From an uncultured Chloroflexia bacterium (GTDB taxonomy: Bacteria > Chloroflexota > Limnocylindria > QHBO01), in contig CAWFCQ010000002.1 of the NCBI GenBank assembly GCA_963814375.1, positions 42,864 to 106,863 on the forward strand: DNA of 64,000 nucleotides, read 5' to 3'. The notes beneath the pieces are model-generated. The model searched no databases and was not told the DNA's origin. It was given only the letters and a program-made list of their open reading frames with translations. Below are positions 16,572 through 61,535 of the stretch, one piece after another; positions within the stretch are counted from its first letter, which is position 1, and each line of letters opens with the position of its first letter. A program made the translations under genes and the position numbers.

Positions 16572-17422
16572 ATGTCTCCCCCGGCCGACGCGTACGAGGC
16601 CGCCGGCCTGTTCGGGCCTGGGAGCGTGTCGTGGCGGATCGATCGCGAGATCGTCGTCCTCGCCGGTGGGTCGTGCGCGCTGCTCCTGCAGGCCGCCCAT
16701 CCGGTCGTGGCGGCCGGGGTCGCCGAGCACTCCACCTACGCCACCGATCCATTCGGGCGCCTGTGGCGAACGCTCGAGAGCAGCTTCGACGTCGTCTTCG
16801 GCACGCGCACCCGGGCCGAGGCGGCCATTCGGCGCGTGAACGCGATCCACGCGCGGGTCCGTGGCCGCCGTCCCGACGACGGAGCCGAGTATTCCGCCCG
16901 TGATCCGGAGGCGCTGCTGTGGGTGCACGCCACCCTCATCGACACGGCGCTGCGCGTCTACGACCGCTTCGTCGCGCCGCTGTCAGCCGCGGATGAGCAG
17001 GGCTATCACGCGGAGGCCGCGCAGGTGGCGCATCTCCTGGGCGTTCCCGACGAGGTCCTGCCCCCGACCATCACCGAGCTTCGGGCGTGGATGGCGTGGA
17101 TGATCGCGTCGCGCCGGGTTCGCGTCACGCCCGCAGCGCGCCAGATCGCCCGCACCGTGCTGTACCCCGTGCCGCTCGTGCCCCGCATTGCCTGGGATGG
17201 CGCTCACCTCATCTCGTTGGCGACGCTGCCCGACGCGATCAGGCGCCAGTACAACCTCGCCTGGTCGCCGGCCCGCGAGCGCGGCGTCGATCGGCTGGCT
17301 ACCGCCACGCAGCGTCTGCTGCCGCTTCTACCCGCGCCGGTGCGACACGTTCCGCAGGCCCGCGCCGCGGATCGCCGGGTGAGACTCGCCCGTGGCCGGC
17401 GGGCGACCGGTACGATGCGCGC

Positions 17423-17426
<4 letters not shown>
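16572..17426 (+). CDS. Oxygenase MpaB family (DUF2236) protein
   Basis: GLFGPGSVSWRI, LLLQAAHPVVAAGVAEHS, VNAIHARVRG, YSARDPEALLWVHATL. Confidence 0.85.
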
Positions 17427-19230
<1,804 letters not shown>

Positions 19231-19234
<4 letters not shown>

Positions 19235-20172
19235 CCGCGGGCCGCACGCTCCGCCGCCAATCTCGCGTCAAGCCGAGCCGTCTTCCGGTCCTCGTGCCGC
19301 ATCCACAGCACGACGACAAGCATCATCGCGGCGAGGAACGCGAGGTCACCGACGACCCACATGATCACCCCGCCGAGCTGCTGGTCCTCCAGGGGCGACA
19401 GGCCCCAGGTGCGCTCGTTCGTCAGGTAGTGCGGATAGAGGACGCCCGATGCCTGGAGCAGCGCGACGCCCAGGAACGAGTTCTGCGGCATCGCCAGGAA
19501 GAGGTAGAGGATGCGCACCGGGTGGGGCAGGCGCCACGGCGATGGATCGGCGCCGATGGCCGGCCACCAGAAGAGGAGCGCGGCCCCGAGCATCGTGACG
19601 TGCTGGAGGTGGTGCAGCAGCGGATTCTCCAGCGCGTCGTTGTAGAGCGCGCTGAAATGCCATCCCCAGTTCGTCGCGGCGAAGAGGAGCCAGGCGATCA
19701 CCGGGAACGAGAGCACGTGGACGATCCGACTCTGGAGCACCGTCAGCAGCGCGCGCCGCACCCGCGGGCTCGATGCGCGGAGCGCGAGCGTGATCGGCGC
19801 GCCGGCCAGCAGAAGTGGAGCGGCCACCAGCTGCAGGAGCATGTGCTGGACCATGTGCACGCTGAAGAGCGATCCCTCGTAGGCCTCGATCGGCGAGAGA
19901 AGCGCGAGCGCGATCGCCGCAAGGCCGGCCCCGAACAGCCATGGCCGATGCGCCGGCACCCGGTTCGACGGATGCCCCCGGTTCACGGTCCGAACCGCCA
20001 GCGCGTAGACGACGCCGGTGGCGACGATCGCCATGAGCGGGAGGATGTCGAAACGCCATTCGAGCAGCACGCCCGGGAATGACGGCGCCGTCGACGTCTC
20101 TCCGTGCGCGGCGACCGGACCGGCCAGTGCGACGAGCGCCAAGACGGCGAGGAGGGGAGGCAGCGGGCGCAT
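19231..20172 (-). CDS. ctaG: Cytochrome c oxidase assembly protein CtaG (caa3-type CtaG family)
   Basis: LFSVHMVQHMLL...APLLL, WH...Y..AL....H..QH, EDQQLGGVIMWV. Confidence 0.88.
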
Positions 20173-20225
20173 CGGCGCACATTCTCGTCTCATTTCGGCG
20201 GAACCGTGCACGCGCGTGCGGCGTC

Positions 20226-21198
20226 ATGGCGCGCATGAGACGAACCGTGCCGGGCTTCTTTGTCGTGCTCCTCGCCATGGCGGCCTGCGCCTCACCCGGC
20301 GCGACGCCGGGCAGTACCGCACCAGAGGCCAGTCCGGGTGCGTCGGGGGAGTCGCCCGCGCCGACTGGCGAAAACGATGGCGCGATCGAGCACCCCACCG
20401 GAGCGGACGAAGCGGTGTTGGTGATGGAGGAGACCGGCGGGATGATCGCCGGCGGAGATGCCACGCAGGTGCCGACGTTCGTCATGCTCGGCGACGGGCG
20501 AGTGATCATGCAGGGCGCCCAGACCCTCGAGTTCCCCGGTCCGGCGCTGCCGCCGCTCATCGAGCGGACCCTCACCGAAGACGGCATCCAGGAAGTGCTC
20601 GAGGCGGTCGAGGAGACGAACCTGTTCACCACCGATACGGCCCTGACCGCCGCGCAGAACATCATCACCGACGTCACCGACACGGTGTTCACGCTCAACG
20701 CCAACGGCACCGAGGTGACCGTGAGCGCCTATGGGCTCTGCTGCCTCGACGCCACGATGCTGGACAACGACATGATCGACCCGGCCGAGCGCGAGGCGTA
20801 CGAGGTGCTCGCCCAGCTGCGCGACGCCCTGATGACGATCGACACCTCGGTCTCGGCCGACGCGTGGGAGGCGGAGGGCTGGCAGCCGTACGAGCCTGAG
20901 GCATTCCGGCTGTACGTGCGCGACGTGACCGGGGAGCCAACCCAGGGCGACGTGCCCGAGCAGGTCCGCGAGTGGCCGACCGACGAGGACCCTGCCGGCT
21001 TCGGCGAGGATGCGGGCTTCGGCGATGGCACGACCTGCGGCGTCGTCGAGGGCGAAGCTGGGCCAGGCGTGGCTCGCGGACCTCAACGCGGCGAACCAGG
21101 TGACGGTCTGGACCAGTGACGGCGACGACCGCTGGTCCGTCCGCGCCCGCCCACTCCTTCCGCACGAAGAGGCGACCTGCCCGGATCCCGCCGGCTGA
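20226..21198 (+). pseudogene. Hypothetical lipoprotein split by apparent +1 frameshift (GGG run at 21060-21062; possible sequencing error)
   Basis: Lipobox LAMAAC; C-terminus GQAWLADLNAANQVTVWTSDGDDRWSVRARPLLPHEEATCPDPAG continues in the next frame; span 973 nt = 3n+1. Confidence 0.7.
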
Positions 21199-21360
21199 GC
21201 ATCCTGTCTCCGGCGCGCTGATGGCGCCCGACGCGGTCGCGCCGCGCGGGCGCCCTTCGCTACAATGCGGGGCGTGTCGCCGTCAGCCCACGAGCGTGTG
21301 CGTGCCTGACGCCCGTGTCGCCCACCTCCGGTGTTCCGTAGGAGCCTCGAGAACGAGCTG

Positions 21361-22404
21361 ATGCCACGAACGGCGCCCGCCAGCCGGCTGCGGTCGATCC
21401 TCAGGATCGGCGCCCCGCTGCTGCTCGTCGTCCTGCTGGCCGGATGCCTCCTGCCACCAGAGCCGAAGACCGAGAGCGGCCAGGACGTCTTTAACCTCTA
21501 CCTGCTCGTCCTGGGACTCGCCGCCATCGTCTTCGTCGGCGTCGAGGGCTTCATCATCTATGCGGTCATCCGCTATCGGCGCCAGCCCGGCGACGACGTC
21601 CTCCCGCCGCAGCTGCACGGCAACAACACGGTCGAGATCATCTGGACCGCCATCCCGACCGTCATCGTGTTCGTCCTCTTCATCTTCAGCATGATCACCC
21701 TCGGCGAGGTCGAGGCCCGCTCGGAAGACCCCGTGACGATCGAGGTCGAGGGCTTCCAGTGGCAGTGGATCTTCCGCTACGAAGAGGGCGCCGAGGTCAT
21801 CGGCAACGCGGAGGAGCCGGCGGTCATGGCCGTGCCGGTGGGCGAGCCGGTTCGGCTCGTGCTCGCCTCGACCGACGTCAACCACGCCTTCTACGTCCCG
21901 CAGTTCCTCATCAAACGCGACGTCATCGATCCCGGCGAGAACGGCCGGCCGAACGAGCTCGAGTTCACCGTCACCGAGGCGGGCACGTACTCCGGGCAGT
22001 GCGCCGAGTTCTGCGGGTCGCAGCACGCCGAGATGACATTCACGGTCGAGGCCATGCCGCGCGCCGAGTACGACGCCTACATCGCGGCCCTGGCCGCCGG
22101 GGAGACCCCTCCGCCGCCGCCGACGGGCGAGTGCGGCACGACGATCCAGGTCGCCGCGATCCCGTCCATCCAGTTCGATACCGACTCGATCGAGGCGCCC
22201 GCGAACGAGGACTTCTGCATCGAGTTCACGAACAACGACAGCGCGGTGCACGATATCGGAATTGAGGAGATCGACTTCAATGGCGACGACGTCCAGCCCG
22301 GCGAGTCGATCACGTACGTCATCCCGGCCATGGAGGCCGGCGACTTCACCTTCTATTGCACGTTGCACCCGACCATGACGGGTGACCTGACCGTGACGGA
22401 GTAG
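21361..22404 (+). CDS. ctaC: Cytochrome c oxidase subunit II with C-terminal fused type-1 copper (cupredoxin) domain
   Basis: LAGC lipobox, two TM helices, FQWQW, CuA ligands HAF...[12 protein letters not shown]; Pro linker then HDIG...YCTLHPTM. Confidence 0.93.
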
Positions 22405-22414
22405 CGAGAGAGCC

Positions 22415-24103
22415 ATGGCAACCACCACGCTCGAGCCCCGCGCCGGCGCCTATCGGCGTTCCTGGGTGCTCGACTGGCTGACGACCGTCGACCACAAGAA
22501 GATCGGGATCCTGTACATCGTCAACAGCTTCCTCTTCTTCTTCGCCGCCGGGATTCTCGCGCTGGTCGTCCGCTCCGAGCTGGCCGTGCCGGGCCTCCAG
22601 TTCCTGGACCAGGACACGTTCAACCAGGCCTTCACGATGCACGGGACGATCATGCTGTTCCTGTTCATCATCCCGGCGCTGTCGGGCTTCGCGAACTACA
22701 TCGTTCCGCTCCAGCTCGGCGCGCCGGACATGGCCTTCCCGCGCATCAACGCCCTCAGCTTCTGGCTTCTCCCGCTCGGCGGGCTGCTGATCTTCTCCGG
22801 CTATCTCTTCGGCGGTGCCGCCGCCGAGGGCTGGACCGGCTATGCGCCGCTCACCGACGACCGCTTCGCACCGGGTGTTGGCACCGACCTGTGGATCATC
22901 GGCCTGACACTCGTCGGCACGGCCTCGATCCTGGGCGCCGTCAATTTCATCGCCACCGTATTCAAGATGCGCGCGCCGGGGATGACGCTGTTCCGGATGC
23001 CGATCTTCGTCTGGACCGTGCTTGTCACGGCGACGCTGATCCTGCTCGCCACCCCGGTGCTGACCGCCGGGCTGATCGCGCTGTTCATCGACCGCAACTA
23101 CGGCGGCTCCTTCTTCGACCCGAGCGTCGGCGGCAACCCGATCCTGTGGCAGCACATCTTCTGGTTCTTCGGCCACCCCGAGGTGTACATCGTCATCCTG
23201 CCGGCGATGGGGGTGGTCAGCGAGGTGCTGCCGGTCTTCAGCCGCAAGCCGCTGTTCGGCTACCGCGCGTTCGTGTTCGCCACCATCGCCATCGGCCTGC
23301 TCAGCTTCAGCGTCTGGGCGCACCACATGTTCACGACCGGCGCGGTCTTCCTGCCGTTCTTCAGCTTCATGACCGCCCTCATCGCGATCCCGACCGGGAT
23401 CAAGATGTTCAACTGGCTCGGCACCCTGTGGCGCGGGAAGCTGATGCTGACGACCGCGATGCTCTTCGCGCTCGGGTTCATCAGCATGTTCCTGATCGGT
23501 GGCATCAGCGGCGTCATGCTCGCCTCGCCCCCGATCGACTTCCACGTCCAGGACACGTACTTCGTGGTCGCCCACCTGCACTACGTCTTCTTCGGCGGGT
23601 CGGTATTCGGCGTCTTCGCCGCGACCTACTACTGGTTCCCGAAGATGAGCGGGCGTCGCCTGAACGAGCCGCTCGGCAAGGTCCACTTCTGGATCCACTT
23701 CATCGGCTTCAACCTCGCGTTCTTCCCGATGCACCAGCTCGGCCTCTCGGGCATGCCGCGACGCATCAGCGACTACAGCCCCGACGCCGGGTGGACGATC
23801 CTGAACTTCGCCTCGACGATCGGCGCCTTCATGATCGCGATCAGCATCCTGCCCTTCCTGGTCAACGTCGTCGCCTCGCTGATCAACGGCGAGCCGGCGG
23901 GTGACGACCCGTGGGAGGGCAACACGCTGGAGTGGGCGACGACCTCGCCGCCGCCGCCCTACAACTTCGACAAGCTCCCGCCGATCCACTCCGAGCGCCC
24001 GCTCTTCTTCCTGACCCACGGCCACGGGCATGCCGCCGAGCGGCCGGACGACCTCGAGGAGTCGCCCGAGGACGACGTGGAGCGCCGGGGAGGTGTCGTG
24101 TGA
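22415..24103 (+). CDS. ctaD: Cytochrome c oxidase subunit I (A-type heme-copper oxidase)
   Basis: [45 protein letters not shown]. Confidence 0.97.
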
Positions 24104-24720
24104 CGGCCGAGACGATGAGGGCGGAGTCAGCGGGCACGGAGCGTCACGAGCCGATCGTGACCCACGCGACCGGCATGCCGACCGCGCTGGTCGGGATGCT
24201 CCTCTTCATCGCGTCCGAGGTGATGTTCTTCGGCGGCCTCTTCGCCACCTATTTCAACGCGCGGGCCAGCGTGGCGCCGGAGCCGTGGGAGCCGCCGCCC
24301 GGCGGCGAGCTGGACCTGCCGCTCGCGGCAGTTCTCACCGCGGTCCTGATCGCGTCCAGCTTCACGATGCAGTTCGGAGTCTGGGCGGTCCGTCGCGGCG
24401 ACACGGGCAAGCTCAAGATGTGGACCGGGATCACGCTGGCGCTCGGCATCCTCTTCCTCGCTGGCCAGCTGTACGACTACAGCCAGCTCGGCTTCGGGAT
24501 CAGCGACGGCGTCTTCGGGACGGTCTTCTACACCCTCACCGGGTTCCACGGCGCGCACGTCTTCGGGGGAGCCGTCGGGCTGACGATCGTTCTCGCCAGG
24601 GCCCTGAGCGGCCAGTTCAGCGCGCGCAACCACGTCGCCGTCGAGGCAGTGAGCATGTACTGGCACTTCGTGGATGTCGTGTGGATCTTCGTCTTCTCGA
24701 CGATCTACCTGCTGCGCTAG
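24100..24720 (+). CDS. ctaE: Cytochrome c oxidase subunit III
   Basis: [31 protein letters not shown]; GTGA overlap with ctaD, GGAGGT RBS. Confidence 0.93.
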
Positions 24721-24732
24721 GGAAGGGGCAAC

Positions 24733-25080
24733 ATGTCGGACACGGCCGTGGGGTTCCTGCTCGTCGGCAGCGCCATGCTCGTCGTGCTCGGCATGGTTTT
24801 CGCCATCTCGTCGCGCTCGGGGCGCACGGGCGCGCGGCCGAAGCCACCGCGCGGTGTGCACCTCCCGCCGCCCAGCTTCCTGCCGGCGATCCTCTCGCTC
24901 GGTGCGGCGCTCATCGGCGCCGGCCTCGCCTTCCGCGGCGACGATCAGCTGGCAAACCCGTTTCTCGCCATCCCGGGACTGATCATCATGGTCCTCGGCT
25001 GCGTGTGGTGGGTTCGGGCCGCGGACCACGAGTGGCGCGAGACCGAGCATGGCTCACACGACGACGGCGCCGGTCACTGA
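24733..25080 (+). CDS. Cytochrome c oxidase subunit IV-like (CtaF-like) membrane protein
   Basis: Three TM helices, HLPPPSFLP motif, position directly after ctaE. Confidence 0.65.
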   Translation: MSDTAVGFLLVGSAMLVVLGMVFAISSRSGRTGARPKPPRGVHLPPPSFLPAILSLGAALIGAGLAFRGDDQLANPFLAIPGLIIMVLGCVWWVRAADHEWRETEHGSHDDGAGH

Positions 25081-25630
25081 TCGTCCGGCGACCACGCCGG
25101 ACTTCCAGCGCCTCCCGCGCCATTACCTCGTGATCGCCGCGATCCTCCCGATCGTGCTGCTCACGGTGCTCGGCGCGGTGCTGCTCCTCCGCTCACCGGC
25201 GCCGCTTGCGACGATCGGGAGCGACGCGCCGGACATCACCCTGGCGGACCTGGACGGCAACCCGGTGCGGCTCGCCGATCTGCGTGGGCGCCCGGTGATC
25301 GTCAACTTCTGGGCCAGCTGGTGCGGGCCGTGCGTCGAGGAGTTCCCGCTGCTGCGCGATGCCGCGGAACGGCATGCCGGCGACCTGGCGGTGATCGGGG
25401 TCGTCTACCAGGATCGCTCGGAGGCGGCACGCGCCTTCATGGAGCGCAACGACGCGGCGTGGACCGCCGCGATGGATCCGGGTGATCGCACCGCGACCGC
25501 GTATGGCATCGTTGGCGTGCCGGAGACCTTCTTCATCGGGCGGGACGGTACGATCGTGGCTCGCCAGATCGGGCAGCTCTCGGCGGCCTCCTTCGAGGAG
25601 AAGCTGGCCACGATCACCGAGGAGGAGTGA
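25049..25630 (+). CDS. TlpA/ResA-family membrane-anchored thiol-disulfide oxidoreductase (start uncertain)
   Basis: [26 protein letters not shown]-terminal TM anchor. Confidence 0.9.
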
Positions 25631-28038: not shown

Positions 28039-29267
28039 GCGCGGCCGATGACGAGGGCGGCATTCATGCCGCCGAACCCGAAGGAGTTGGAGACCGCGGC
28101 CTCGACGGGGGTGGCCCGTGCCTCCATCAGGAGCTCGAGGTCGATCTCCGGATCGGGGTCGCGCAGGTTGCAGGTGCCCGGCAGCACGCCACGTTCGAGG
28201 GCGAGTGCCGTGATCGCGGCCTCGACGGCGCCGGATGCTCCGAGAGCGTGGCCGTAGAGGCCCTTCGTGCTCGAGACGGGAATCTCATCGGTGCGGGCGC
28301 CGAAGGCGAGGCGGATGGCACGAGCCTCGGCCGGCTCGTTGAGCTGGGTGCTCGAGCCGTGAGCATTGACATAGCCGATGCGCTCCGGCGCGACCTCGCC
28401 GTCGGCGAGCGCCGTGGTGATCGCGCGCGCGGCATCCCGCCCGTCGGGCCGCGGCGCGGTCATGTGGTAGGCGTCGTTGCTCGAGCCGAAGCCGAGGATC
28501 TCGGCAATCACGCGCGCGCCGCGGGCCCGAGCCGACGAAAGATCCTCGAGGACGAGGATCGCCGCCGCCTCGCCCATCACGAACCCGTCGCGCTCACGAT
28601 CGAACGGCCGTGAGGCCGTGGCGGGATCGTCATTGCGCGCAGAGAGGACCCGGATGAGGGCGAAGGCGCCGAAGGTCAGCGGAGCCAGCGGCGCCTCGGC
28701 GCCACCGGCGAGGGCGACGTCGACGGTCCCGTCGCGGATCGCCCCGAAAGCCTGGCCGATCGCCATCGCGCCAGACGCGCAGGAGTTGGCGTTTCCGACC
28801 GCCGGTCCGGTCAGCCCGAGGTCGAGCGCCACGTTGCTCGCCCCGGCGCCGCCGAAGACCGCCAGGGCGAGCGTCGGCGAGACGCCACGCGCGCCGCGCG
28901 CCACGAAGCCGGCGTGCTGCTCCTCGCCGTAGGCGACGCCCCCCAGCGCCGACCCGACCCAGACGCCGGTGCGAGCCGCCGCCCCGTCGTTGAGCTTGAG
29001 GCCGGCGTCCTCGACCGCCTGGCGGGCGGTGGCGACGGAAAGAGCACTGAATCGGTCGAGGCGCCGTGCCCGGCGCACGTCGAGATGCGCCGCGGGATCG
29101 AAATCGTCGATCTGGGCTGCGATCCGCGACGGGAAGGCGGAAGCGTCGAACCGATCGATCGGCCGTACCGCCGATTTGTCGGCGAGGACGCCGGCCCACA
29201 GTCCCTCGGCGCCGGACCCGATCGGGGTGATGGCACCGATGCCCGTGATCGCGACGCGGCGGCTCAC
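28035..29267 (-). CDS. fabF: Beta-ketoacyl-ACP synthase II-like ketosynthase
   Basis: VAITGIGAITPIG, catalytic NSCASG, NAHGSST, GHALGASG, SNSFGFGG; GTG start overlapping upstream stop. Confidence 0.92.
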   Translation of the reverse strand: MSRRVAITGIGAITPIGSGAEGLWAGVLADKSAVRPIDRFDASAFPSRIAAQIDDFDPAAHLDVRRARRLDRFSALSVATARQAVEDAGLKLNDGAAARTGVWVGSALGGVAYGEEQHAGFVARGARGVSPTLALAVFGGAGASNVALDLGLTGPAVGNANSCASGAMAIGQAFGAIRDGTVDVALAGGAEAPLAPLTFGAFALIRVLSARNDDPATASRPFDRERDGFVMGEAAAILVLEDLSSARARGARVIAEILGFGSSNDAYHMTAPRPDGRDAARAITTALADGEVAPERIGYVNAHGSSTQLNEPAEARAIRLAFGARTDEIPVSSTKGLYGHALGASGAVEAAITALALERGVLPGTCNLRDPDPEIDLELLMEARATPVEAAVSNSFGFGGMNAALVIGRA

Positions 29268-37693: not shown

Positions 37694-39018
37694 GCGGCCA
37701 TCCCCTCGACCAGCGCCTCGGCGGCGCGCTCCTCGTTGTCGGCCTCGCCCTCGGGCACGCCACGCAGGATCCAGACGCCGACGAGGAGGAGGACGAAGAG
37801 CGAGGCGATCGCGATCTGGTAGGCGGCCGTGTCGAGCGAACCGACCAGCGTCGAGACGATGACGCCGTAGAGGATCGGCCCGACGACCGCGCTGAACTTC
37901 CCGACCAGCCCGTAGAGACCGAACATCTCGCCCACCCGCTCGGGCGGTGTGAGCCGGAGCAGCATGAGCCGATCCACGACGCCGACTCCTCCGAGGCCCG
38001 CCCCGCACAGCGCCCCTCCGATGAGGAACGGCACGGTCGACAGGAAGAGGGCGAGGACGGTGAGACCGGCTGCCCACGCGGCAAGGACGGCGAAGAGGGT
38101 GCGACGCGGGCCCCAGCGGTCGGCGAGGTAGCCCCAGCCGAAGCTGGCGAACACCGCCACGACGGTCAGGAGCAGGAGCACCTGGAGCGCCTCGCCCTCG
38201 GTGAAGCCGACGGCGAAGACCGCGAAAGCGCTCATCACAGCGATCGCCGTGTTGACCGGGTCGGAGTAGAAGAAGCGGGCAACGATGAACCGTAAGAGCC
38301 CGGGCGACTCCCGCGCATGCCGGACGGTCGTGCCCAGCTGTGCCCAGGAACGAGCGGCATCGGCGGCGCTGAACGGCGTTCCGGGGCGGTCGCGCTCGCT
38401 GACGAGGAGAAACAGCGGGGCGGCGAAGAGGAGGAAGAGCCCGCCGACGAGCGCGAACGTCGCGGCGGTCGTCTCGCCATCGGCGTCGGCGCTGACCCCG
38501 GCGAGGAGGAGCGCGCCGACGAGAAGGGTGCCGCAGTAGCCGAGCCCGACCCCGATGCCGGAGAGGCGTCCACGCGCGATCGGCCGCGCGACGTCGGGCA
38601 GGAGGGCGTCGTAGTAGATGAGCGCCGCCTGGTAGGCGAAGTTGGCGATCGCGAAGGCAACCAGCCCCAGCCGGATGTCGACGAAGCCGATAACGACCGT
38701 CCCGACGATGCACAGCGCGGTGAAGAAGGCGAGAAACGGCTTGCGGCGGCCAACCCGGTCGCTCATCGCGCCGAGGATCGGCGAGACGGCCGCATTGATG
38801 AGGACCGATACGCTCAACGCCGCGGTGAACCAGAAGGTGCCGTCGGCCTCGCCCAGGAATCGAATCGCCCACAGGCTCATGGCGAAGCTCACGACCGCGA
38901 AGCTGAAGATCGTGTTGGCGAGGTCGTAAAGCGCCCACGCCAGCGCCTCGATCGCCGATCCGGTCCGCGTCAGGGCGCCGAGACCGCGCCACCAGCCGGC
39001 CGGGGCGAGGACGGTCAT
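37690..39018 (-). CDS. MFS transporter (UMF1/Atg22-like)
   Basis: WALYDLANTIF, GAMSDRVGRRK, YYDALLPDV, GEMFGLY; about 12 TM. Confidence 0.9.
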   Translation of the reverse strand: MTVLAPAGWWRGLGALTRTGSAIEALAWALYDLANTIFSFAVVSFAMSLWAIRFLGEADGTFWFTAALSVSVLINAAVSPILGAMSDRVGRRKPFLAFFTALCIVGTVVIGFVDIRLGLVAFAIANFAYQAALIYYDALLPDVARPIARGRLSGIGVGLGYCGTLLVGALLLAGVSADADGETTAATFALVGGLFLLFAAPLFLLVSERDRPGTPFSAADAARSWAQLGTTVRHARESPGLLRFIVARFFYSDPVNTAIAVMSAFAVFAVGFTEGEALQVLLLLTVVAVFASFGWGYLADRWGPRRTLFAVLAAWAAGLTVLALFLSTVPFLIGGALCGAGLGGVGVVDRLMLLRLTPPERVGEMFGLYGLVGKFSAVVGPILYGVIVSTLVGSLDTAAYQIAIASLFVLLLVGVWILRGVPEGEADNEERAAEALVEGMAA

Positions 39019-39312: not shown

Positions 39313-41808
39313 ATGCGCCGCCCCCTCATCCTCACCGCTTTCCTCGCCATGCTCGCCGCCACGTGGCTCGCGCTGCGCGGGGGCGGCGGCTCCGACGCGC
39401 CACCGTATCCGGCCGATCCGCCCGTTGAGCCGGAGCCGCAGCTGTCCACCGTCCACAACGGAGGTTTCGCCGCTCTGGGCCGGGCGACCTATCGGCATCG
39501 GCGCTGGTTGCCGGTCGCCGGGCTGGCCGTCGTCATCGGGCTAAACGTCTGGGCAGCCACCGCGGGAAGCCGTCTCAGCCAGGGCGGCTGGCAGATCGCC
39601 GGATCGGAGGCGGTCCGCGCCGAGGCGCTCCTGGCCGATCGATTCGGAGAGCAGGCCACCAGCCTCATCGTCATCCTCACCGACCCCGACGGCGATGCGG
39701 CCTCAGCCGAGTTCCAGGGGACGGTCGCGGACGCGGTCGCGCCGCTGGCGGATGAAGCGATCGTCGACGAGATCCTCACCTACGCCGACGTCGGCGACAC
39801 CTCGTTCATCAGCACCGATGGCTCTCGGACCTTCGCGGTCATCCGGCTCAACGAGGACGTGGAGGAGTCGGTCGACGATGCCGAGCATCTCGCGAGCCTT
39901 GTCGCCGCACCCGATGGCGTCGAGACGATCGTGACCGGCATCCCGCTCGTGCAGCACGAATTCAACGAGGCGGTGGAGCGGGACCTGTTCCGGGCCGAGC
40001 TCATCAGCCTGCCGGTCGCCATGCTCATCCTGTTGGCGGTGTTCGGCACGGTGGTCGGTGCGATCCTGCCGATCGTGGTTGCAGGGATCGCCCTCCCGAG
40101 CGCGATGGCCATGATCACGCTCCTCGCCGGCGTCACCGAGATGAGCATCTTCGTCACCAACGTGGCGACCATGATCGGCCTTGCATTGGCGATCGACTAC
40201 TCGCTCTTCATGGTCAGCCGGTTCCGCGAGGAGCTGCGGCATCGGTCAGTGGCCGACGCGGTCGAGCACACCATGGGGACCGTCGGCAAGGCGGTGGCCA
40301 TCAGCGGGATCGCCGTGGCGATCGGCCTGGCGAGCCTCACCGTCTTCGAATCGCCGGCGCTGCGCAGCATGGGGATCGGCGGCGTCGTGACCGTCCTCTC
40401 CACCCTCGTCTTCGGCCTCACCGTGCTGCCGGCGCTGCTCGGGATGCTCGGGCCTCGGGTCAACCGCCTGCGAGTGCCGATGCCCCGCGCGCTGCGGCTC
40501 ATGGACGAGACCGGCGCGGCCGGCGAGGCACGCCACGGGCACGGGCTGTGGAGCCGGATCGCGCGCGCCGTGATGCGTCGGCCGATCCTCATCGCCACGC
40601 CGGTGCTCGTCATCCTGATCCTGGCCGGGCTGCCGTTCCTCCGGATCCAGCTCTCGACCGGCGGCAACCTGGACGATCTCCCGCCGTCGGAGAGCGTGAG
40701 CGGCTTCGAGATCCTCGCCGACGAGTTCCCCGGCGGTGGCGCCGACCCGATCGAGGTCGCCGTGCTGGACGACGAGCCGATCCTCGTCGACGGCGCCCTG
40801 CCGCCTGAGCAGGCGGAGGCGCTCCAGGCCTACGTCGACGAGCTGGCGCAGATCACTGACGTGACCGAGATCGAGTCGGTCCTCAGCCCGCCGGCCGGGC
40901 TTGACGAGGCGACCTACCTTGCGCTGGCCGCGACGCCGGAGGACCAGCGGCCGCCGGAGGCGGCGGGCGTGGGCATCTATCTCGATCAGTGGATCGCCGA
41001 CGACGTCGTCCGCGTCGACGTGTTCAGCTCGGCGCTCCCGGACTCGAGCGCCGGCCGTGAAGTGGTGGCCGACGTCCGGGCGGTGCCCCCGCCGGACGGG
41101 TTCGCCGAAACCTTCACCGCCGGGCTCTCGTCGCGCTCGGCCGACTTCATGGCCAGCTTCGCCGAGTCGGTGCCGTCCGCCGTCGCCGTGGTGGTCGGCG
41201 TGACGATGATCGTCCTCTTCCTGAGCTTCGGATCGGTGCTGCTGCCGATCAAGGCGGTCCTCATGAGCCTCCTCAGCATCACGGCCAGCTTCGGTGCGCT
41301 GGTCTGGATCTTCCAGGAGGGCAACATGTCGGGGGTGCTGAACTTCGAGGCCTCGGGGACGATCATCGCCTCCACGCCGATCCTCATGTTCGCGGTGCTC
41401 TTCGGCCTGAGCATGGACTACGAGATCCTGCTCCTCTCTCGGATCCGGGAGCGCTACCTGATCACCGGCGACAACACGCGAGCCGTGGCCGAGGGCATCG
41501 GTATCACCGGCGGGATCATCACCGGGGCGGCGCTCATCATGGTCGCTGTCTTCGGCGCGTTCGCGATGTCATCGGTGATGGTGATCAAGTCGCTCGGCTT
41601 CGCCATGGCGCTCGCCGTGCTCATCGACGCCACGGTCGTGCGCGGGATCCTGGTCCCGGCCTTCATGCGCGTTATGGGCGACCTCAACTGGTGGGCGCCG
41701 CGCTGGATGCAGCGTGCCGTTGCCCGGTTGGGGCTGTACGAGGGACCCTCGCCCGGGAACGTGCCGGCAGCTGAGGCATGGACGGGCGCCGCTCCTCAAC
41801 CCGACTAG
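39313..41808 (+). CDS. MMPL (RND superfamily) transporter with extra N-terminal TM segment
   Basis: GLALAIDYSLF..SRFREEL, FGLSMDYE.LL.SRIRE, two-fold internal repeat. Confidence 0.92.
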   Translation: MRRPLILTAFLAMLAATWLALRGGGGSDAPPYPADPPVEPEPQLSTVHNGGFAALGRATYRHRRWLPVAGLAVVIGLNVWAATAGSRLSQGGWQIAGSEAVRAEALLADRFGEQATSLIVILTDPDGDAASAEFQGTVADAVAPLADEAIVDEILTYADVGDTSFISTDGSRTFAVIRLNEDVEESVDDAEHLASLVAAPDGVETIVTGIPLVQHEFNEAVERDLFRAELISLPVAMLILLAVFGTVVGAILPIVVAGIALPSAMAMITLLAGVTEMSIFVTNVATMIGLALAIDYSLFMVSRFREELRHRSVADAVEHTMGTVGKAVAISGIAVAIGLASLTVFESPALRSMGIGGVVTVLSTLVFGLTVLPALLGMLGPRVNRLRVPMPRALRLMDETGAAGEARHGHGLWSRIARAVMRRPILIATPVLVILILAGLPFLRIQLSTGGNLDDLPPSESVSGFEILADEFPGGGADPIEVAVLDDEPILVDGALPPEQAEALQAYVDELAQITDVTEIESVLSPPAGLDEATYLALAATPEDQRPPEAAGVGIYLDQWIADDVVRVDVFSSALPDSSAGREVVADVRAVPPPDGFAETFTAGLSSRSADFMASFAESVPSAVAVVVGVTMIVLFLSFGSVLLPIKAVLMSLLSITASFGALVWIFQEGNMSGVLNFEASGTIIASTPILMFAVLFGLSMDYEILLLSRIRERYLITGDNTRAVAEGIGITGGIITGAALIMVAVFGAFAMSSVMVIKSLGFAMALAVLIDATVVRGILVPAFMRVMGDLNWWAPRWMQRAVARLGLYEGPSPGNVPAAEAWTGAAPQPD

Positions 41809-41822
41809 GCTAGGCTCGCGCG

Positions 41823-42089
41823 GTGACCCGCGAACGCCTGGAAGCGCTGACGGACCGATGGCGCGCTCGCCACGACGCGCGAGCCGCGGGTCCCCGCCCG
41901 GTCGCCGACCCCGAGCGAGAGGCGTTGGCGGCACGGTCGTTTCCATACCGATCCGTGCGGCCTCACGAGTACGTGGCGATGCACGGCGCGGACATGATCG
42001 GCTTCACGTACGACGAGGCCCGATACGCCGATCCGGAGCTCGACGCCTGGCTGGTCGAGGTTGGACGCCTCCTGCGGGATAGCAGGTGA
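41823..42089 (+). CDS. Hypothetical protein (88 aa)
   Basis: GTG 6 nt after TAGGCT; GTGA overlap with next gene. Confidence 0.65.
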   Translation: MTRERLEALTDRWRARHDARAAGPRPVADPEREALAARSFPYRSVRPHEYVAMHGADMIGFTYDEARYADPELDAWLVEVGRLLRDSR

Positions 42090-42689
42090 AGCTTCCGGGC
42101 TGGGCGATCGCGCTCGTCGCGGAAGTCTGCGCCGCTGCCGGCACCCAGCCGCCACGGCTCACGTGGCGGGCACGGAGAGGGGAGCATTCCACCGGGGTGA
42201 CCCGCCGGGACGCTCGGCGTGGTCTCGGTCCGTGCCGGAACCGATACGCTCGACCAGCGGCTCACCCTGCTGCACGAGCTCGCCCACTGGCTCTCGCCGT
42301 CACCGCGCCGCCATCGTGGCCGGGCGACACACCATGGGCGCGCCTTCTACACGATGGCATTCGACCTCTACCGCCGTCACGGCATTCCCGATGCGGATGC
42401 GCTGCGGCTGGAGTCGGGCCGCTATCGCAGCTCGCTCCGCCACGCTGCCGCCCTCGAGGTCTCGGGGGCCCTCGAGGCTCTGGCCGAGCATCGCGCATCT
42501 CTCCGCGCCCGTCCGCGGCGGCGCTGGCGCGTCCTGGTCGCGGAGCATGTCATCCGTCTCGAGCGCTCCGGGCGGTGGACCGTCTGCTCGCGCTGCGGTC
42601 AGCGCGTCGTTGGCCAGAACCTCGCCCGGCTGCGGCGCACGCGCCGTCCCGTGTCGCACGTCCTGATGACGAGCGCCGAGGCGTCCTGA
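42086..42689 (+). pseudogene. SprT-like zinc metallopeptidase with C-terminal CxxC; split by apparent +1 frameshift at ~42215 (possible sequencing error)
   Basis: MKLPGW...GVTRRDA joins GVVSVRAGTD...LLHELAHW...HHGRAF...CSRC; span 604 nt = 3n+1. Confidence 0.7.
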
Positions 42690-42703
42690 GCGGGCCGCTC
42701 AGG
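42685..42703. terminator. Hairpin between convergent genes
   Basis: CCTGAGCG-ggc-CGCTCAGG spanning both stop codons. Confidence 0.4.
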
Positions 42704-43595
42704 CGGGCGCGCCGACCAAGTCCCTCGCGCGCGCTGCCGCTTCGGCGAGCGCATTCACCGATGCCACCGAGCGCGGGAAGACATGCGTGATGAGGTGGTC
42801 GATTCCGAGCTCGGCGTAACCGGCCAGCCCGGCAGCCATCTCGTCGACCGTGCCGCGCATGGCGTGCTCCGGCGTGTCGGCGTCGGCGCCCTCGAAGGCG
42901 GCGTGGATGCCGGCGGTCAGCGTCAGCGTCGTCGGATCCCTGCCGGCCGCATCGATCGCCGCCCGGAGGTTCGTGAGCCTCGTGCGCAGCTCGTCGGCGG
43001 CTTCCGGGAAGCCGAACCAGGCGCCGTTCCACTGGTCGGCGTGCCGCGCGACGAGGTCGAGCATGCGCGGCTGCTTGCCGGCGATGAGGATCGGCGGCCC
43101 GCCGGGGCGCACGGGACGCGGCAGGAGCTCGGTCTCGGCGCGGTGCCATCGGCCGCTGAAGCTGACCTTCCCGTCGCGCAGCAGTGACGCGATGATGGTC
43201 AGCGCCTCCTCGAACCGGCCGACGCGATGGTCGAACGGGTAGTCGTAGTCGTCGAACTCGGGCTGATGCCAGCCGCAGCCGAGGCCGAGGATGAGCCTGC
43301 CTCCGCTGACGTCGTCGAGCTCGGCGGCCATCTTGGCGGTGAGCGCCGGGTTGCGGAACGGCGTCGCCAGCACGAGCGGTCCGATCTCGACGCGGCTCGT
43401 CACCGCGGCGACTGCCGTGAGCACGGTCCAGGCCTCGTGGATCCCGACGACCTCCTCGCCGTCGCGGAAGATGAGGTGGTCGGGCAACCAGACGGAGTCG
43501 AGTCCGCCGGCCTCGGCGGCCAGTGCCATCTGCTTGATGTCGTCGTAGCCGGCCACGTCATCGTCGCCGAGGGGGAGCATCAGTCCGATCTTCAT
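42699..43595 (-). CDS. LLM class flavin-dependent oxidoreductase
   Basis: MKIGLMLP, SVWLPDH, RNPALTAKMAAELDDVSGGRLILGLGCGW, PILIAG. Confidence 0.9.
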   Translation of the reverse strand: MKIGLMLPLGDDDVAGYDDIKQMALAAEAGGLDSVWLPDHLIFRDGEEVVGIHEAWTVLTAVAAVTSRVEIGPLVLATPFRNPALTAKMAAELDDVSGGRLILGLGCGWHQPEFDDYDYPFDHRVGRFEEALTIIASLLRDGKVSFSGRWHRAETELLPRPVRPGGPPILIAGKQPRMLDLVARHADQWNGAWFGFPEAADELRTRLTNLRAAIDAAGRDPTTLTLTAGIHAAFEGADADTPEHAMRGTVDEMAAGLAGYAELGIDHLITHVFPRSVASVNALAEAAARARDLVGAPA

Positions 43596-44768: not shown

Positions 44769-44844
44769 TGGAGCGGGAGACGGGATTCGAACCCGCGACA
44801 GCCGGCTTGGAAGGCCGGTACTCTTCCAACTGAGTTACTCCCGC
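44769..44844 (-). tRNA. tRNA-Gly(TCC), 76 nt, CCA encoded
   Basis: Reverse complement GCGGGAGTAACTCAGTTGGAAGAGTACCGGCCTTCCAAGCCGGCTGTCGCGGGTTCGAATCCCGTCTCCCGCTCCA; acceptor stem GCGGGAG/CTCCCGC, anticodon arm CCGGC-CTTCCAA-GCCGG, GGTTCGAATCC T-arm. Confidence 0.97.
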
Positions 44845-45461
44845 GCGGAGCGCGCTACCCACGTCCTCAGACGGTGGCAGTTCGCGCAGACGATATCGCA
44901 TTTCGCGACCTCGCCCAAGATTGTCGCAGTGGACTGCCGGCCGACCATTCGCGTAACCGTATAGAGCTTGTCGGCAGGATCGCGGTGATCGAAGTCCATC
45001 GAGCATGCCTCGAAGCGTCCGCTGCAGTCTGCGCACGGCACGTCGCGAAGCCCGTCCAGGAGTCTGACCTGCTCTCTCCATTTCCGGAGCCTCAGGACCT
45101 GCGAAGGCGCCTTCGACGCATCCCTTCTCGGTCGCCTGCGCTCTGTGTCGCGAGTCCGGAGTCGGTGGCAGTTGACGCAGACGATGTCGCATTTCGCTAC
45201 TTCCGCGAGAACCCGCTGCGTGGACATGAGCATCGCGCGGCCGGTCATCACGTTGAATGACTTCGTCGACGGATCTCGATGGTCGAAGTCCATCTGGTGA
45301 GGCTTGAGCTGCCTGCCGCAATCCGTGCACGGGACGCGTCGCAGGTCGCGGAGGAGCTCGACCATGCCCGCCTGCCGAACTCGCACGCGCTGGAGCTCGA
45401 GCTCGCGATTCCGCGCGTAGTACTCGACGTTGTATGGGCGTTGGCTGCGTCTGCGCGACAT
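44835..45461 (-). CDS. Tandem double HNH (betabetaalpha-Me) zinc-finger endonuclease-like protein (208 aa)
   Basis: Two internal repeats each with CxxC...MDFDHRDP...EVAKCDIVC(V/A)NCHRLRT; basic N-terminal helix; consensus promoter immediately upstream. Confidence 0.85.
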   Translation of the reverse strand: MSRRRSQRPYNVEYYARNRELELQRVRVRQAGMVELLRDLRRVPCTDCGRQLKPHQMDFDHRDPSTKSFNVMTGRAMLMSTQRVLAEVAKCDIVCVNCHRLRTRDTERRRPRRDASKAPSQVLRLRKWREQVRLLDGLRDVPCADCSGRFEACSMDFDHRDPADKLYTVTRMVGRQSTATILGEVAKCDIVCANCHRLRTWVARSARE

Positions 45462-59062: not shown

Positions 59063-59260
59063 CTACATGTGCGGTTCGTACGACGGGTCGAGGAATTTCG
59101 CGGGGTCCTCCTCGAAGTCCAGCTTGCAGCCTCGACCGCAGAAGTAGTACGTCGCCCCGTCATGTTCCGCGCTGAGTCCCCCTGCGCCGGCGATCTCCTC
59201 GTTGACCTTCATGCCGCACACGGGATCGGTTGCCGTCGGTGTCGTCGGTAGCTCGTTCAT
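59063..59260 (-). CDS. YHS/TRASH-domain metal-binding protein
   Basis: DPVCGMKV...[20 protein letters not shown]; ATGA overlap with copA stop. Confidence 0.88.
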
Positions 59261-61535
59261 CGGATCTCCATGGAGTTCTGACCGGTCATGCGGAAGGCGC
59301 GAAGCCGCAGCGAGTTGCCGACGACGCTCACGCTCGAGAGGGCCATGGCGGCGGCCGCCAGCGCCGGGTTCAGCAGCAGCCCTGCCACCGGGTAGAGGAT
59401 CCCGGCCGCGACCGGGATGAGGAGGACGTTGTATCCGAAGGCCCAGCCCAGGTTCTGCCGGATCGTTCGCATCGTGGCGCGCGACAGGCGCACGGTGGTC
59501 GGCACACCGCCGAGGTCGTCTCGAACCAGGGTGATGTCCGATGCCTGGAGCGCGACGTCGGCGCCGGTGCCGATCGAGATCCCGACATCGGCCCGTGCCA
59601 GCGCCGGGGCGTCATTGATCCCGTCGCCGACCATCGCGACGACGGCGCCGGATGCCGCCAGCTCTTCGACGAACGCGGCCTTGTCGCCCGGCAGGACCTC
59701 GGCCCGGATGCGTTCCGGTCCGATGCCGACGAGCTCGCCGACGGCTTCCGCCGTCGTCCGCCGATCGCCGGTCACCATCCAGACATCGATGCCGAGCCCG
59801 CGAAGCGCGGCGACCGCATCGGCCGCCCTCGGCTTGACGGTGTCGGCCAGGCCGACCTCGCCGATGAGCTCGCCGTCGCGCGCCACGTGAACCAGGGACA
59901 TGCCGGGATCGCCTCCTTCGTCGGGCGGGGAGGCATCGATCCCTGCGTCGGAGAGGAACCGAGCGGTCCCGACCAGGATCTCGGCGCCTTCGACCGTGGC
60001 GCGAACGCCCATCCCGGCGACGGCGGCGAACGACGTCGCCTCGAGCGGCTCGATGCCGAGGAGGTCGGCGTGGCGAACGATCGCCTCGCCAAGCGGGTGC
60101 TCGCTGCCACGCTCTGCGGTCGCGGCGAGACGCAGGAGCGCGCGCTCATCGACTCCCGCAGCCGGCCGCACCACGGTCACCGATGGCTCTCCGCGCGTGA
60201 TGGTGCCCGTCTTGTCCAGGACGACGGCGTCGATGCGCTCCGCGTGCTCGAGCGCGGCGCCGTCGCGGACGAGGACCCCGTTCTCGGCCCCCTTGCCGGT
60301 GCCGACCATGATCGCGGTAGGGGTGGCGAGACCCATGGCACAGGGGCAGGCGATGATGAGGACGGCGATCGCCGAGCTCAATGCCAGCGGCAGGCGAGGT
60401 TCCGGACCGAGCAGCATCCAACCGGCGAAGGTCACAGCGGCGATGACCATGACGGCGGGGACGAACCATCCGGTGACGCGATCGGCGACCCGCTGGATCG
60501 GCGCCTTGGACCCCTGGGCACGCTCGACGAGCGCGACGATCTGCGCGAGCGCGGTCTCGCTCCCGACGCGCTCGGCCCGCATGACGAACGACCCGCTCGC
60601 GTTGATGGTGGCGCCGATGGCCCGGTCGCCGCTGCGCTTCTCGACGGGGAGGGCCTCGCCGGTCAACATCGACTCGTCGACGGCCGAGGCACCGTCGACG
60701 ATCACGCCGTCGACGGGGATGCGGTCACCCGGGCGCACCCGCAGCAGGTCGCCGATCGCGACCTGCTCGACGGGGACCTCTCGCTCACCGCCGTCGCGCA
60801 GGACGCGCGCCGTTGGAGGCTGAAGATTGAGGAGCGCCTTGACGGCCCCGGCCGCGCGTCCCTTGGCGCGCGCCTCGAGCCATCGACCGAAGAGGACGAG
60901 TCCGATGATGACCGCGGCGGTGTCGAAGTAGGTCTCGTGGGACAGTCCGGCCGCCATCACCGCCTCGGGCATGAGGGTGATGAACAGCGAGTAGCCGTAC
61001 GCGGCCATCGTCCCGAGGGCGACGAGCGTGTTCATGTTCGCCTCGCCGTGCCGCGCGCCGCGCAGGGCGGCCACGAGGAACCGGCGCCCGAACACGAACT
61101 GGACGATCGTTGCCGGCACGAGGAGCCAGCGATTGATCTGCTCCATCGGCCACGGCGCGCCGCCGGGCCAGAACATGATCGCCATCATCACCACACCGAT
61201 GCCCAGCGACGCGAGTGCCTGGAACAACAGCTCCCGCTGCTCGGTAACGTGTGCCGCCTCCTCGGCATGCTCGGCTCCCATCGAGGCGCCGGAGCTTTGG
61301 CGGCGACGTCATATCCGGCGGCCTCGATCGCGGCCACGATCCCAGTGCGGTCGATGCGCGCCGGGTCGAAGCGCACCGTGGCCCGCTCGGTGGCGAGGTT
61401 CACGGTCGCCTCGTCGACGCCCTCCGCGCGGTTCACGAACCGCTCGATCCGGTTGACGCAGCTGGCGCAGGTCATGCCGAGCACGCTGATCGAGATCTCG
61501 GACGTCGGCGGCGACGTGGGGGAAGCGTTTGTCAT
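59257..61535 (-). pseudogene. copA: Cu(+)-translocating P1B-type ATPase with N-terminal HMA domain; apparent -1 frameshift at ~61287 (possible sequencing error)
   Basis: GMTCASC HMA in one frame; [35 protein letters not shown] in the other; span 2279 nt = 3n+2. Confidence 0.9.

Follow-up and report, generated by a model that had tools for sequence, protein, structure and literature searches.

Oxidases of the caa3 type are the textbook fusion of an electron carrier to its acceptor, with a cytochrome c joined to the C-terminus of subunit II. The locus described here raises the question of whether a blue-copper protein can take the same place and serve the same purpose. It lies in a 64,000-nucleotide stretch of DNA from an uncultured soil bacterium of the Chloroflexia (contig CAWFCQ010000002.1, positions 42,864 to 106,863 of the forward strand), referred to below as the window. 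The gene coxB of the window encodes a cytochrome oxidase subunit II that continues, after its CuA domain, into a cupredoxin. An initial annotation had described this continuation, at positions 22090–22404, as an amicyanin-type blue-copper domain standing in for cytochrome c, and proposed that it is a covalently tethered electron donor. We consider it likely that the cupredoxin is a tethered type-1 (T1) copper module through which electrons enter a single A1-type aa3 oxidase, and that it replaces the cytochrome c domain of caa3 oxidases.

Architecture and predicted copper site of the CoxB protein

The longest open reading frame (ORF) of coxB encodes 357 residues. The annotated database copy of the protein (P0272, on the 240,016-nt contig) has 347 residues and begins at M11, and this methionine, at position 21361, is probably the real start. 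The region 22090–22404 corresponds to residues 254–357 and the stop codon. The gene and the segments of its product are as follows:

21331..22404 (+): coxB (ctaC), oxidase subunit II with a C-terminal cupredoxin; ORF and translation, Pfam COX2_TM, COX2 and Cupredoxin_1
21361..21447 (+): signal peptide of the lipoprotein type with the lipobox L-A-G-C39 at its end; near-invariance of G38 and C39 among 35 homologues
21487..21693 (+): two transmembrane helices (COX2_TM); PF02790 at residues 53–121, helices 48–81 and 99–128 in the AlphaFold2 (AF2) model
21718..22089 (+), motif at 22000–22035: periplasmic CuA domain; PF00116, ligands H185, C224, E226, C228, H232 and M235
22099..22128 (+): proline-rich linker, G257-ETPPPPPT-G266; seen in the sequence, with low predicted local distance difference test (pLDDT) values at residues 264–266
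22126..22401 (+): 92-residue cupredoxin domain of the predicted type-1 class; H307 (22249–22251) and the loop C343-x2-H346-x2-M349 (22357–22377), PF13473

The translation of the ORF and the Pfam domains agree on the fusion of subunit II to a cupredoxin. Matches to COX2_TM (residues 53–121, E 1e-10) and COX2 (residues 166–241, E 3e-17) are followed by a match to Cupredoxin_1 (PF13473, residues 279–355, E 2e-17), which scores 63.5 bits against a cut-off of 27 and is still found, at 3e-13, when the 104-residue C-terminal tail is searched alone. The match to the COX2–Cupredoxin_1 combination is far beyond chance. All of the elements that the initial annotation had listed are present, namely the intact CuA domain, the TPPPPPT linker, the acidic cupredoxin of about 90 residues, and the motifs N-D-x3-H (N-D-S-A-V-H307) and Y-C-T-L-H-P-T-M (Y-C343-T-L-H346-P-T-M349). 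The lack of a CxxCH motif extends to the whole protein, and CoxB does not have the C-terminal cytochrome c domain of the caa3 type. The cupredoxin domain has an isoelectric point (pI) of 4.05, with 19 aspartates and glutamates and no lysine or arginine. The lipoprotein-type signal peptide has a parallel in the CtaC protein of Bacillus subtilis, which is a lipoprotein.

The conservation of the metal ligands was assessed in an alignment of 35 homologues with identities of 45–80% and a mean column identity of 61%. The four T1 ligands (H307, C343, H346, and M349) and the six CuA ligand positions are invariant in all 35 sequences, and the cupredoxin domain is as conserved as the remainder of CoxB. 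The linker between them differs in composition and length from one homologue to another. Cysteines 268 and 296 of the cupredoxin are kept in at least 90% of the homologues and may form a disulfide bond. The ligand loop C-T-L-H-P-T-M has the spacing C-x2-H-x2-M, and some homologues have three residues ahead of the methionine. These features point to type-1 copper binding by the domain.

The isolated domain was modelled by AF2 as a minimal cupredoxin with a pLDDT of 95.9 and a predicted template modelling score (pTM) of 0.86. The model has the Greek-key cupredoxin fold, with template modelling (TM) scores of 0.7–0.87 to known cupredoxins in Foldseek. The closest structures are those of auracyanins (0.83–0.87), FtrB (0.86), and the copper-bound Cupredoxin_1 protein of Bacillus anthracis (PDB: 4HCF; 0.82), and amicyanin and plastocyanin follow at about 0.70. 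By sequence, the solved protein closest to the domain is a Nitrosopumilus multicopper oxidase (PDB: 9CCK; 8.5e-11), through the cupredoxin tethered at its C-terminus, followed by an engineered chimera of CuA with an amicyanin loop and then by amicyanin itself at 1e-3. The designation of the domain as amicyanin-type therefore holds for the C-x2-H-x2-M spacing and not for the family, which is Cupredoxin_1; the Copper-bind family PF00127 remains below its threshold (14.6–17.8 bits, compared to 21.2), and the nearest folds are those of the B. anthracis protein, FtrB, and the auracyanins. Amicyanin also differs in context, as the partner of methylamine dehydrogenase (mau cluster), from a domain fused to CoxB. 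The full-length CoxB model reached a pLDDT of 81 and a pTM of 0.56. In Foldseek it comes closest to subunit II of the Thermus caa3 oxidase (2YEV_B; E 9e-20, 36% identity), followed by CtaC chains of actinobacterial bcc-aa3 supercomplexes.

The coxB gene of the window is intact and agrees with all homologues, whereas a near-identical twin on another contig (P0002) has a frameshift within the cupredoxin domain. Frameshifts in or near this domain occur in the coxB copies P0002, L016, L020, and L023 from long-read metagenome-assembled genomes (MAGs), and are most likely assembly or sequencing errors. A frameshifted gene is called as a truncated CoxB without Cupredoxin_1, and the architecture is therefore under-counted.

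Distribution of the cupredoxin module in complexes III and IV

The relatives of CoxB comprise more than 900 database proteins, of which the best 120 all carry PF13473, PF00116, and PF02790. The related loci belong nearly exclusively to MAGs labelled Candidatus Limnocylindria, Chloroflexota, or 'Chloroflexia', and the genome studied here is a member of the class Candidatus Limnocylindria, in keeping with the link to Chloroflexota made in the initial annotation. We searched 121 genomes of this class and inspected the C-terminal tails of 14 CoxB copies covering all five of its families (f1–f5). The cupredoxin fusion is present in family f1, to which this genome belongs (12 of 12 genera), and in most genera of family f3. 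In families f2 and f5, the same position is occupied by a cytochrome c domain with a CxxCH motif, and in family f4 the CuA motif is missing from the two CoxB copies inspected. The CoxB relatives from Ktedonobacteria (35–40% identity) are of the caa3 type, with CxxCH after the CuA domain. The cupredoxin thus stands exactly where sister lineages bear a cytochrome c domain, as the comparison with caa3 oxidases in the initial annotation had anticipated. In a FastTree phylogeny of the CoxB core, the cupredoxin-bearing clade of f1 and f3 and the clade with cytochrome c are placed as sisters.

Outside the class, a fusion is encoded in only one (G244, Candidatus Dormibacteraeota-like) of 301 genomes sampled from the whole phylum. 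The cupredoxin at the C-terminus of this CoxB is of another, plastocyanin-like kind, with the loop C-T-F-H-K-S-V-G-M. The homologues of this CoxB give more than 500 metagenome matches annotated as Candidatus Dormibacteraeota, of which the best 120 are all fused, and one of them bears the Joint Genome Institute (JGI) name 'cytochrome c oxidase subunit II/plastocyanin'. The gene lies in a cluster (L045 2079–10228) of ctaA-ctaB, coxA, the CoxB–plastocyanin gene, and genes for a three-haem cytochrome c, subunit IV, cytochrome b6, and a Rieske protein; since oxidase genes are joined with Rieske and cytochrome b6 genes, complexes III and IV are encoded together. The CoxA of this cluster has the motif YSHPAV, which marks an A2-type oxidase. 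In the tree of the CoxB core, the G244 protein groups with the cytochrome c clade, and the swap to a cupredoxin therefore apparently arose at least twice. The Dormibacteraeota fusion would then be independent of that in Limnocylindria, apparently a case of recurrent evolution of the same solution. The architecture for which the initial annotation had suggested a search is found in Limnocylindria families f1 and f3 and, as a separate CoxB–plastocyanin fusion, in Dormibacteraeota. When the domain was searched against a representative library, the COX2 fusions in the top 150 matches were all Limnocylindria-like, with no further phyla among them; the systematic survey covered Chloroflexota.

The nearest relatives of the domain apart from CoxB (P0122–P0271) are mostly proteins of two to eight tandem cupredoxin repeats, with lengths of up to 1166 residues. 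The C-x2-H-xn-M loop is kept in most of the repeats, and these proteins could possibly be multi-copper 'wires'.

Cupredoxins also occur in complex III. The cytochrome c position of the complex III operon is taken by a dihaem cytochrome c in family f1, whereas in family f3 it is taken by a protein in which a single haem c domain precedes a cupredoxin (L046 5260–5976 (+) in genome G029; L047 4113–5000 (-) in genome G041). The database protein P0249 has the same haem c–cupredoxin architecture as this f3 subunit. Furthermore, in one f3 genome (L048 4251–4499 (-), G038), a gene downstream of coxA-coxC encodes a membrane protein that resembles subunit IV and ends in a cupredoxin. A protein of this kind, P0263, matches Pfam Cyt_c_ox_IV at 26.3 bits, just below the cut-off of 26.9, and its cupredoxin is 72% identical to that of CoxB from the same genome. 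The arrangement in G038 points to an oxidase with two tethered cupredoxins per enzyme. As judged from domain order and gene position, cupredoxin modules repeatedly replace haem c modules exactly in the segment from complex III to complex IV. This recurrence is the strongest comparative argument for reading the CoxB domain as an electron-transfer module.

Oxidase operon and proposed electron entry in the Limnocylindria genome

The gene coxB is flanked by the genes expected around a subunit II, with coxA, coxC, ctaA-ctaB, and ctaG adjacent to it:

17087..19234 (+): fused haem A synthase (CtaA) and haem O synthase (CtaB); PF02628 and PF01040, syntenic; the true start probably lies downstream of 17087
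19231..20211 (-): CtaG assembly factor of the caa3 type; PF09678, E 2e-77, syntenic
20226..21119 (+): acidic lipoprotein directly upstream of coxB, between ctaG and coxB; same place in f1 loci
22415..24103 (+): coxA, haem-copper oxidase subunit I; PF00115, E 4e-167, motif FFGHPEVY
24115..24720 (+): coxC, subunit III; PF00510, E 1e-38
24733..25080 (+): small membrane protein of 115 residues at the subunit IV position; syntenic, 61–75% identity in all f1 loci
25049..25630 (+): membrane-anchored thioredoxin-like protein (TlpA/ResA-like); Pfam AhpC-TSA/Redoxin, E 1e-25, syntenic

The order of these genes, from ctaA-ctaB through ctaG on the opposite strand, the lipoprotein, coxB, coxA, coxC, and the 115-residue protein to the TlpA-like protein, is fully syntenic across family f1. 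The FFGHPEVY motif of CoxA contains the GHPEV of helix VI with the D-channel glutamate, which by the A1/A2 rule makes the oxidase A1-type. The lipoprotein upstream of coxB (about 297 residues, very acidic) has no Pfam match and shares 39–65% identity across f1 loci; it could be an unrecognised accessory or assembly protein of the oxidase. The 115-residue membrane protein has no Pfam match above the cut-off. The TlpA/ResA-like protein is a candidate reductant for the assembly of the cysteines of the CuA and T1 sites.

The genome has 2.5 Mb in 8 contigs and is 89% complete. COX1 and the CuA subunit each occur once in it, and a signature of cytochrome bd was not found. A regular expression for the CydA motif 'GRQPW' gave a single match in an arginine- and alanine-rich, probably non-coding frame, which was rejected. 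The fused oxidase is the only terminal oxidase found in this genome. A CxxCH pattern search of the genome returned 8 ORFs, several of which do not resemble cytochromes. One ORF of the window with two CxxCH-like strings (44835–45461 (-), 208 residues) was rejected as a cytochrome c; it contains paired C..C / C..CH repeats resembling zinc fingers. Cytochromes of the c type are few yet present, together with a CcsA-type (system II) maturation gene. Loss of haem c maturation was rejected as the cause of the swap, since the genome keeps c-type cytochromes, CcsA, and a bc-type complex; the initial annotation had suggested a check for c-type cytochromes and for a bc complex or alternative complex III.

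The bc-type complex is encoded on contig C3 by an operon for an iron–sulfur/flavin (FeS/FAD) oxidoreductase, cytochrome b6, subunit IV, a Rieske protein, a membrane-anchored dihaem cytochrome c, and a small membrane protein. This operon encodes a b6c-type complex III, and its dihaem cytochrome c (37967–38770) is kept in all sampled f1 genomes. The oxidoreductase that heads the operon (40802–42775 (-), 657 residues, with Fer4_20, Pyr_redox_2, and two [4Fe-4S] clusters) is an unusual partner of a bc complex, and is found at the same position in family f3 with 60–63% identity. A lipoprotein cupredoxin with the loop C-E-I-H-S-S-M (28234–28770) is encoded approximately 9 kb from the operon. Including this protein and three encoded elsewhere, the genome has at least four cupredoxin genes besides coxB.

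In the segment 203356–210302 of contig C4, a cupredoxin gene adjoins that of a TlpA-like thioredoxin, and a large protein resembling a CopC/CopD fusion and ending in a cytochrome c-like CxxCH region is encoded about 4 kb away. This segment is probably a copper-handling island. Within the window, a 65-residue protein with a C-G-M-K metal-binding motif lies beside a 674-residue ORF resembling a heavy-metal P-type ATPase (59063–61281 (-)).

From these components, the following route can be proposed. Quinol would be oxidised by the b6c-type complex III, and electrons would pass to its membrane-anchored dihaem cytochrome c or possibly to the lipoprotein cupredoxin as a shuttle. Either carrier could reduce the T1 copper tethered on CoxB, from which electrons would move to CuA, about one domain away, and through haem a to the haem a3–CuB site. 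Copper binding, the direction and competence of the T1-to-CuA step, and the identity of the donor are predictions from sequence. Dihaem cytochrome c4 of Acidithiobacillus ferrooxidans reduces the cupredoxin AcoP in vitro (PMC5982212), which provides a precedent for electron transfer from haem c to T1 copper upstream of an oxidase. The invariance of the T1 ligands and the position equivalent to that of cytochrome c thus lend support to the tethered donor proposed in the initial annotation, with the T1-to-CuA transfer itself as the predicted step.

More tentatively, and with somewhat less than even confidence, we propose that two abundant soil lineages of Chloroflexota, the Limnocylindria of families f1 and f3 and the Dormibacteraeota, may have rebuilt the segment between complexes III and IV, with tethered T1 copper replacing haem c. 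The f3 chain might then be largely copper-wired and possibly form a supercomplex without a free carrier. Its relay would run from the Rieske protein to haem c, to the T1 copper of the complex III subunit, to the T1 copper of CoxB, and to CuA, with an additional T1 copper on the subunit IV-like protein in some genomes.

Several observations weigh against the domain being an electron-entry module. A short CoxB paralogue that lacks the extension and is nested inside the cupredoxin clade is additionally encoded in many genomes of f1 and f3, and the extension is therefore dispensable for an oxidase as such. The pTM of 0.56 of the full-length model leaves the interdomain geometry and the distance between T1 copper and CuA unfixed. 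The Cupredoxin_1 family includes domains that are not carriers, such as those of the FtrB/EfeO type. The T1 and CuA domains, the dihaem cytochrome c, and the free cupredoxin all have a pI of about 4, and since all of these periplasmic modules are strongly acidic, no electrostatic pairing is evident. Finally, the completeness of 89% leaves some room for a second oxidase in the genome.

Other roles of the domain were weighed against these data. It could handle copper, by metallating CuA and CuB or by buffering, rather than carry electrons. The nearest folds include FtrB and the B. anthracis protein, whose role is unassigned, the operon contains CtaG and the TlpA-like assembly factor, and an apparent copper P-type ATPase gene is present in the window. 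However, known CuA chaperones use sites rich in methionine and histidine, whereas the full His-Cys-His-Met set of a T1 site is invariant here; in addition, the corresponding position is filled by a redox cytochrome c in sister lineages, and in the complex III cytochrome c subunit this same module stands in for a haem domain. We therefore regard a copper-handling role as quite unlikely. The domain might instead oxidise a periplasmic substrate directly, for example Fe(II), as in EfeO/FtrB or rusticyanin chains, and so bypass complex III. Membership in Cupredoxin_1, the TM score of 0.86 to FtrB, and a very acidic surface that could draw cations would fit such a role, which is nevertheless very improbable, because a full complex III is kept, its cytochrome c subunit and the fusion occur together throughout f1, no genes for iron oxidation were noticed among those of the operon, and the sites of FtrB-type domains differ from the classic T1 loop of Cys-His-Met.

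The CoxB core has subunits of actinobacterial bcc-aa3 supercomplexes among its top structural neighbours and there are paralogues without the extension, which would be in accordance with the domain being mainly a structural element for docking complexes III and IV, or an evolutionary relic that contributes little to redox chemistry. In a relic, the four metal ligands would not have stayed invariant throughout two families and more than 900 homologues in the databases, and we give this explanation a very small chance. That two genes were joined by a sequencing error, to which the frameshifted copies in some long-read MAGs might seem to point, is practically negligible as an explanation and was rejected. 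The ORF is uninterrupted in dozens of independent genomes and hundreds of metagenome contigs, and the frameshifts break the fusion and do not create it.

Significance and comparison with known systems

We found no description or biochemical study of a COX2–cupredoxin fusion in a literature search that left subscription journals mostly uncovered, so that an earlier mention is possible. Automated annotation has clearly already registered the domains. No cultured isolate or respiratory biochemistry of Limnocylindria or Dormibacteraeota surfaced in the same search. The CoxB fusion probably represents a haem-copper oxidase with a tethered donor, in which a T1 copper carrier takes the place of haem c. 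Such a blue-copper version of the caa3 design would put T1 copper and CuA in series on one polypeptide, which would be attractive for studies of intramolecular electron transfer from copper to copper. It also bears on the trade of iron for copper in bacterial respiration. The trait marks two soil lineages with many metagenome homologues, and offers a natural experiment on the reason for the module swap. If the copper-wired chain of family f3 is real, it would parallel in bacteria the copper-based chains known from Thaumarchaeota, Sulfolobales, and haloarchaea.

The closest known architecture is that of subunit IIc of the Thermus thermophilus caa3 oxidase (PDB: 2YEV), which shares the lipoprotein-like N-terminus, the two transmembrane helices, the CuA domain, the linker, and a tethered one-electron carrier, and the operon of the window includes a CtaG of the caa3 type. 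The two differ in that the Thermus carrier is haem c, whereas the one here is a predicted T1 copper cupredoxin. Subunit I of the Thermus enzyme is of the A2 type, unlike the A1-type CoxA of the window with its GHPEV motif.

Blue copper has been described in place of cytochrome c in archaea. In the SoxM supercomplex of Sulfolobus, sulfocyanin (SoxE), and in the ba3 oxidase system of Natronomonas, halocyanin, replace cytochrome c between the Rieske protein and cytochrome b on one side and CuA on the other. These are separate archaeal polypeptides, in contrast to the fusion described here. The nearest published statement that we found concerns haloarchaea, in which halocyanin and subunit IIa of ba3-type oxidases form one fusion protein (PMC3128077). 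This protein shares with CoxB a blue-copper donor placed covalently on a haem-copper oxidase subunit and the tethered T1-to-CuA arrangement. However, it is archaeal, belongs to a B-family oxidase and to another cupredoxin family, and is N-terminal to the small IIa helix instead of at the C-terminus of subunit II.

Copper enzymes with a tethered cupredoxin, such as the Nitrosopumilus multicopper oxidase/NirK-like protein (PDB: 9CCK) and NirK proteins with a tethered cupredoxin or cytochrome, have a domain of the same family as a built-in C-terminal donor, but the acceptor in them is a T1/T2 site and here would be the CuA of an oxidase. AcoP of Acidithiobacillus ferrooxidans associates with an aa3 oxidase, and differs from the CoxB domain in that it stands alone, has a green copper site, and belongs to the iron-oxidation chain of an acidophile. 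It resembles the arrangement proposed here as a membrane-attached cupredoxin reduced by a dihaem cytochrome c4 (PMC5982212).

The actinobacterial bcc-aa3 supercomplexes (PDB: 7E1V, 8OVC) are structurally close to the CoxB core, and their dihaem cytochrome c is a fixed donor to CuA that needs no soluble carrier; the actinobacterial CtaC, unlike CoxB, is without a redox extension. The auracyanins of Chloroflexus and Roseiflexus are blue-copper carriers from the same phylum and resemble the CoxB cupredoxin in fold (TM scores of 0.83–0.87), yet they share only 17–22% identity with it, are stand-alone, membrane-tethered proteins, and work with alternative complex III.

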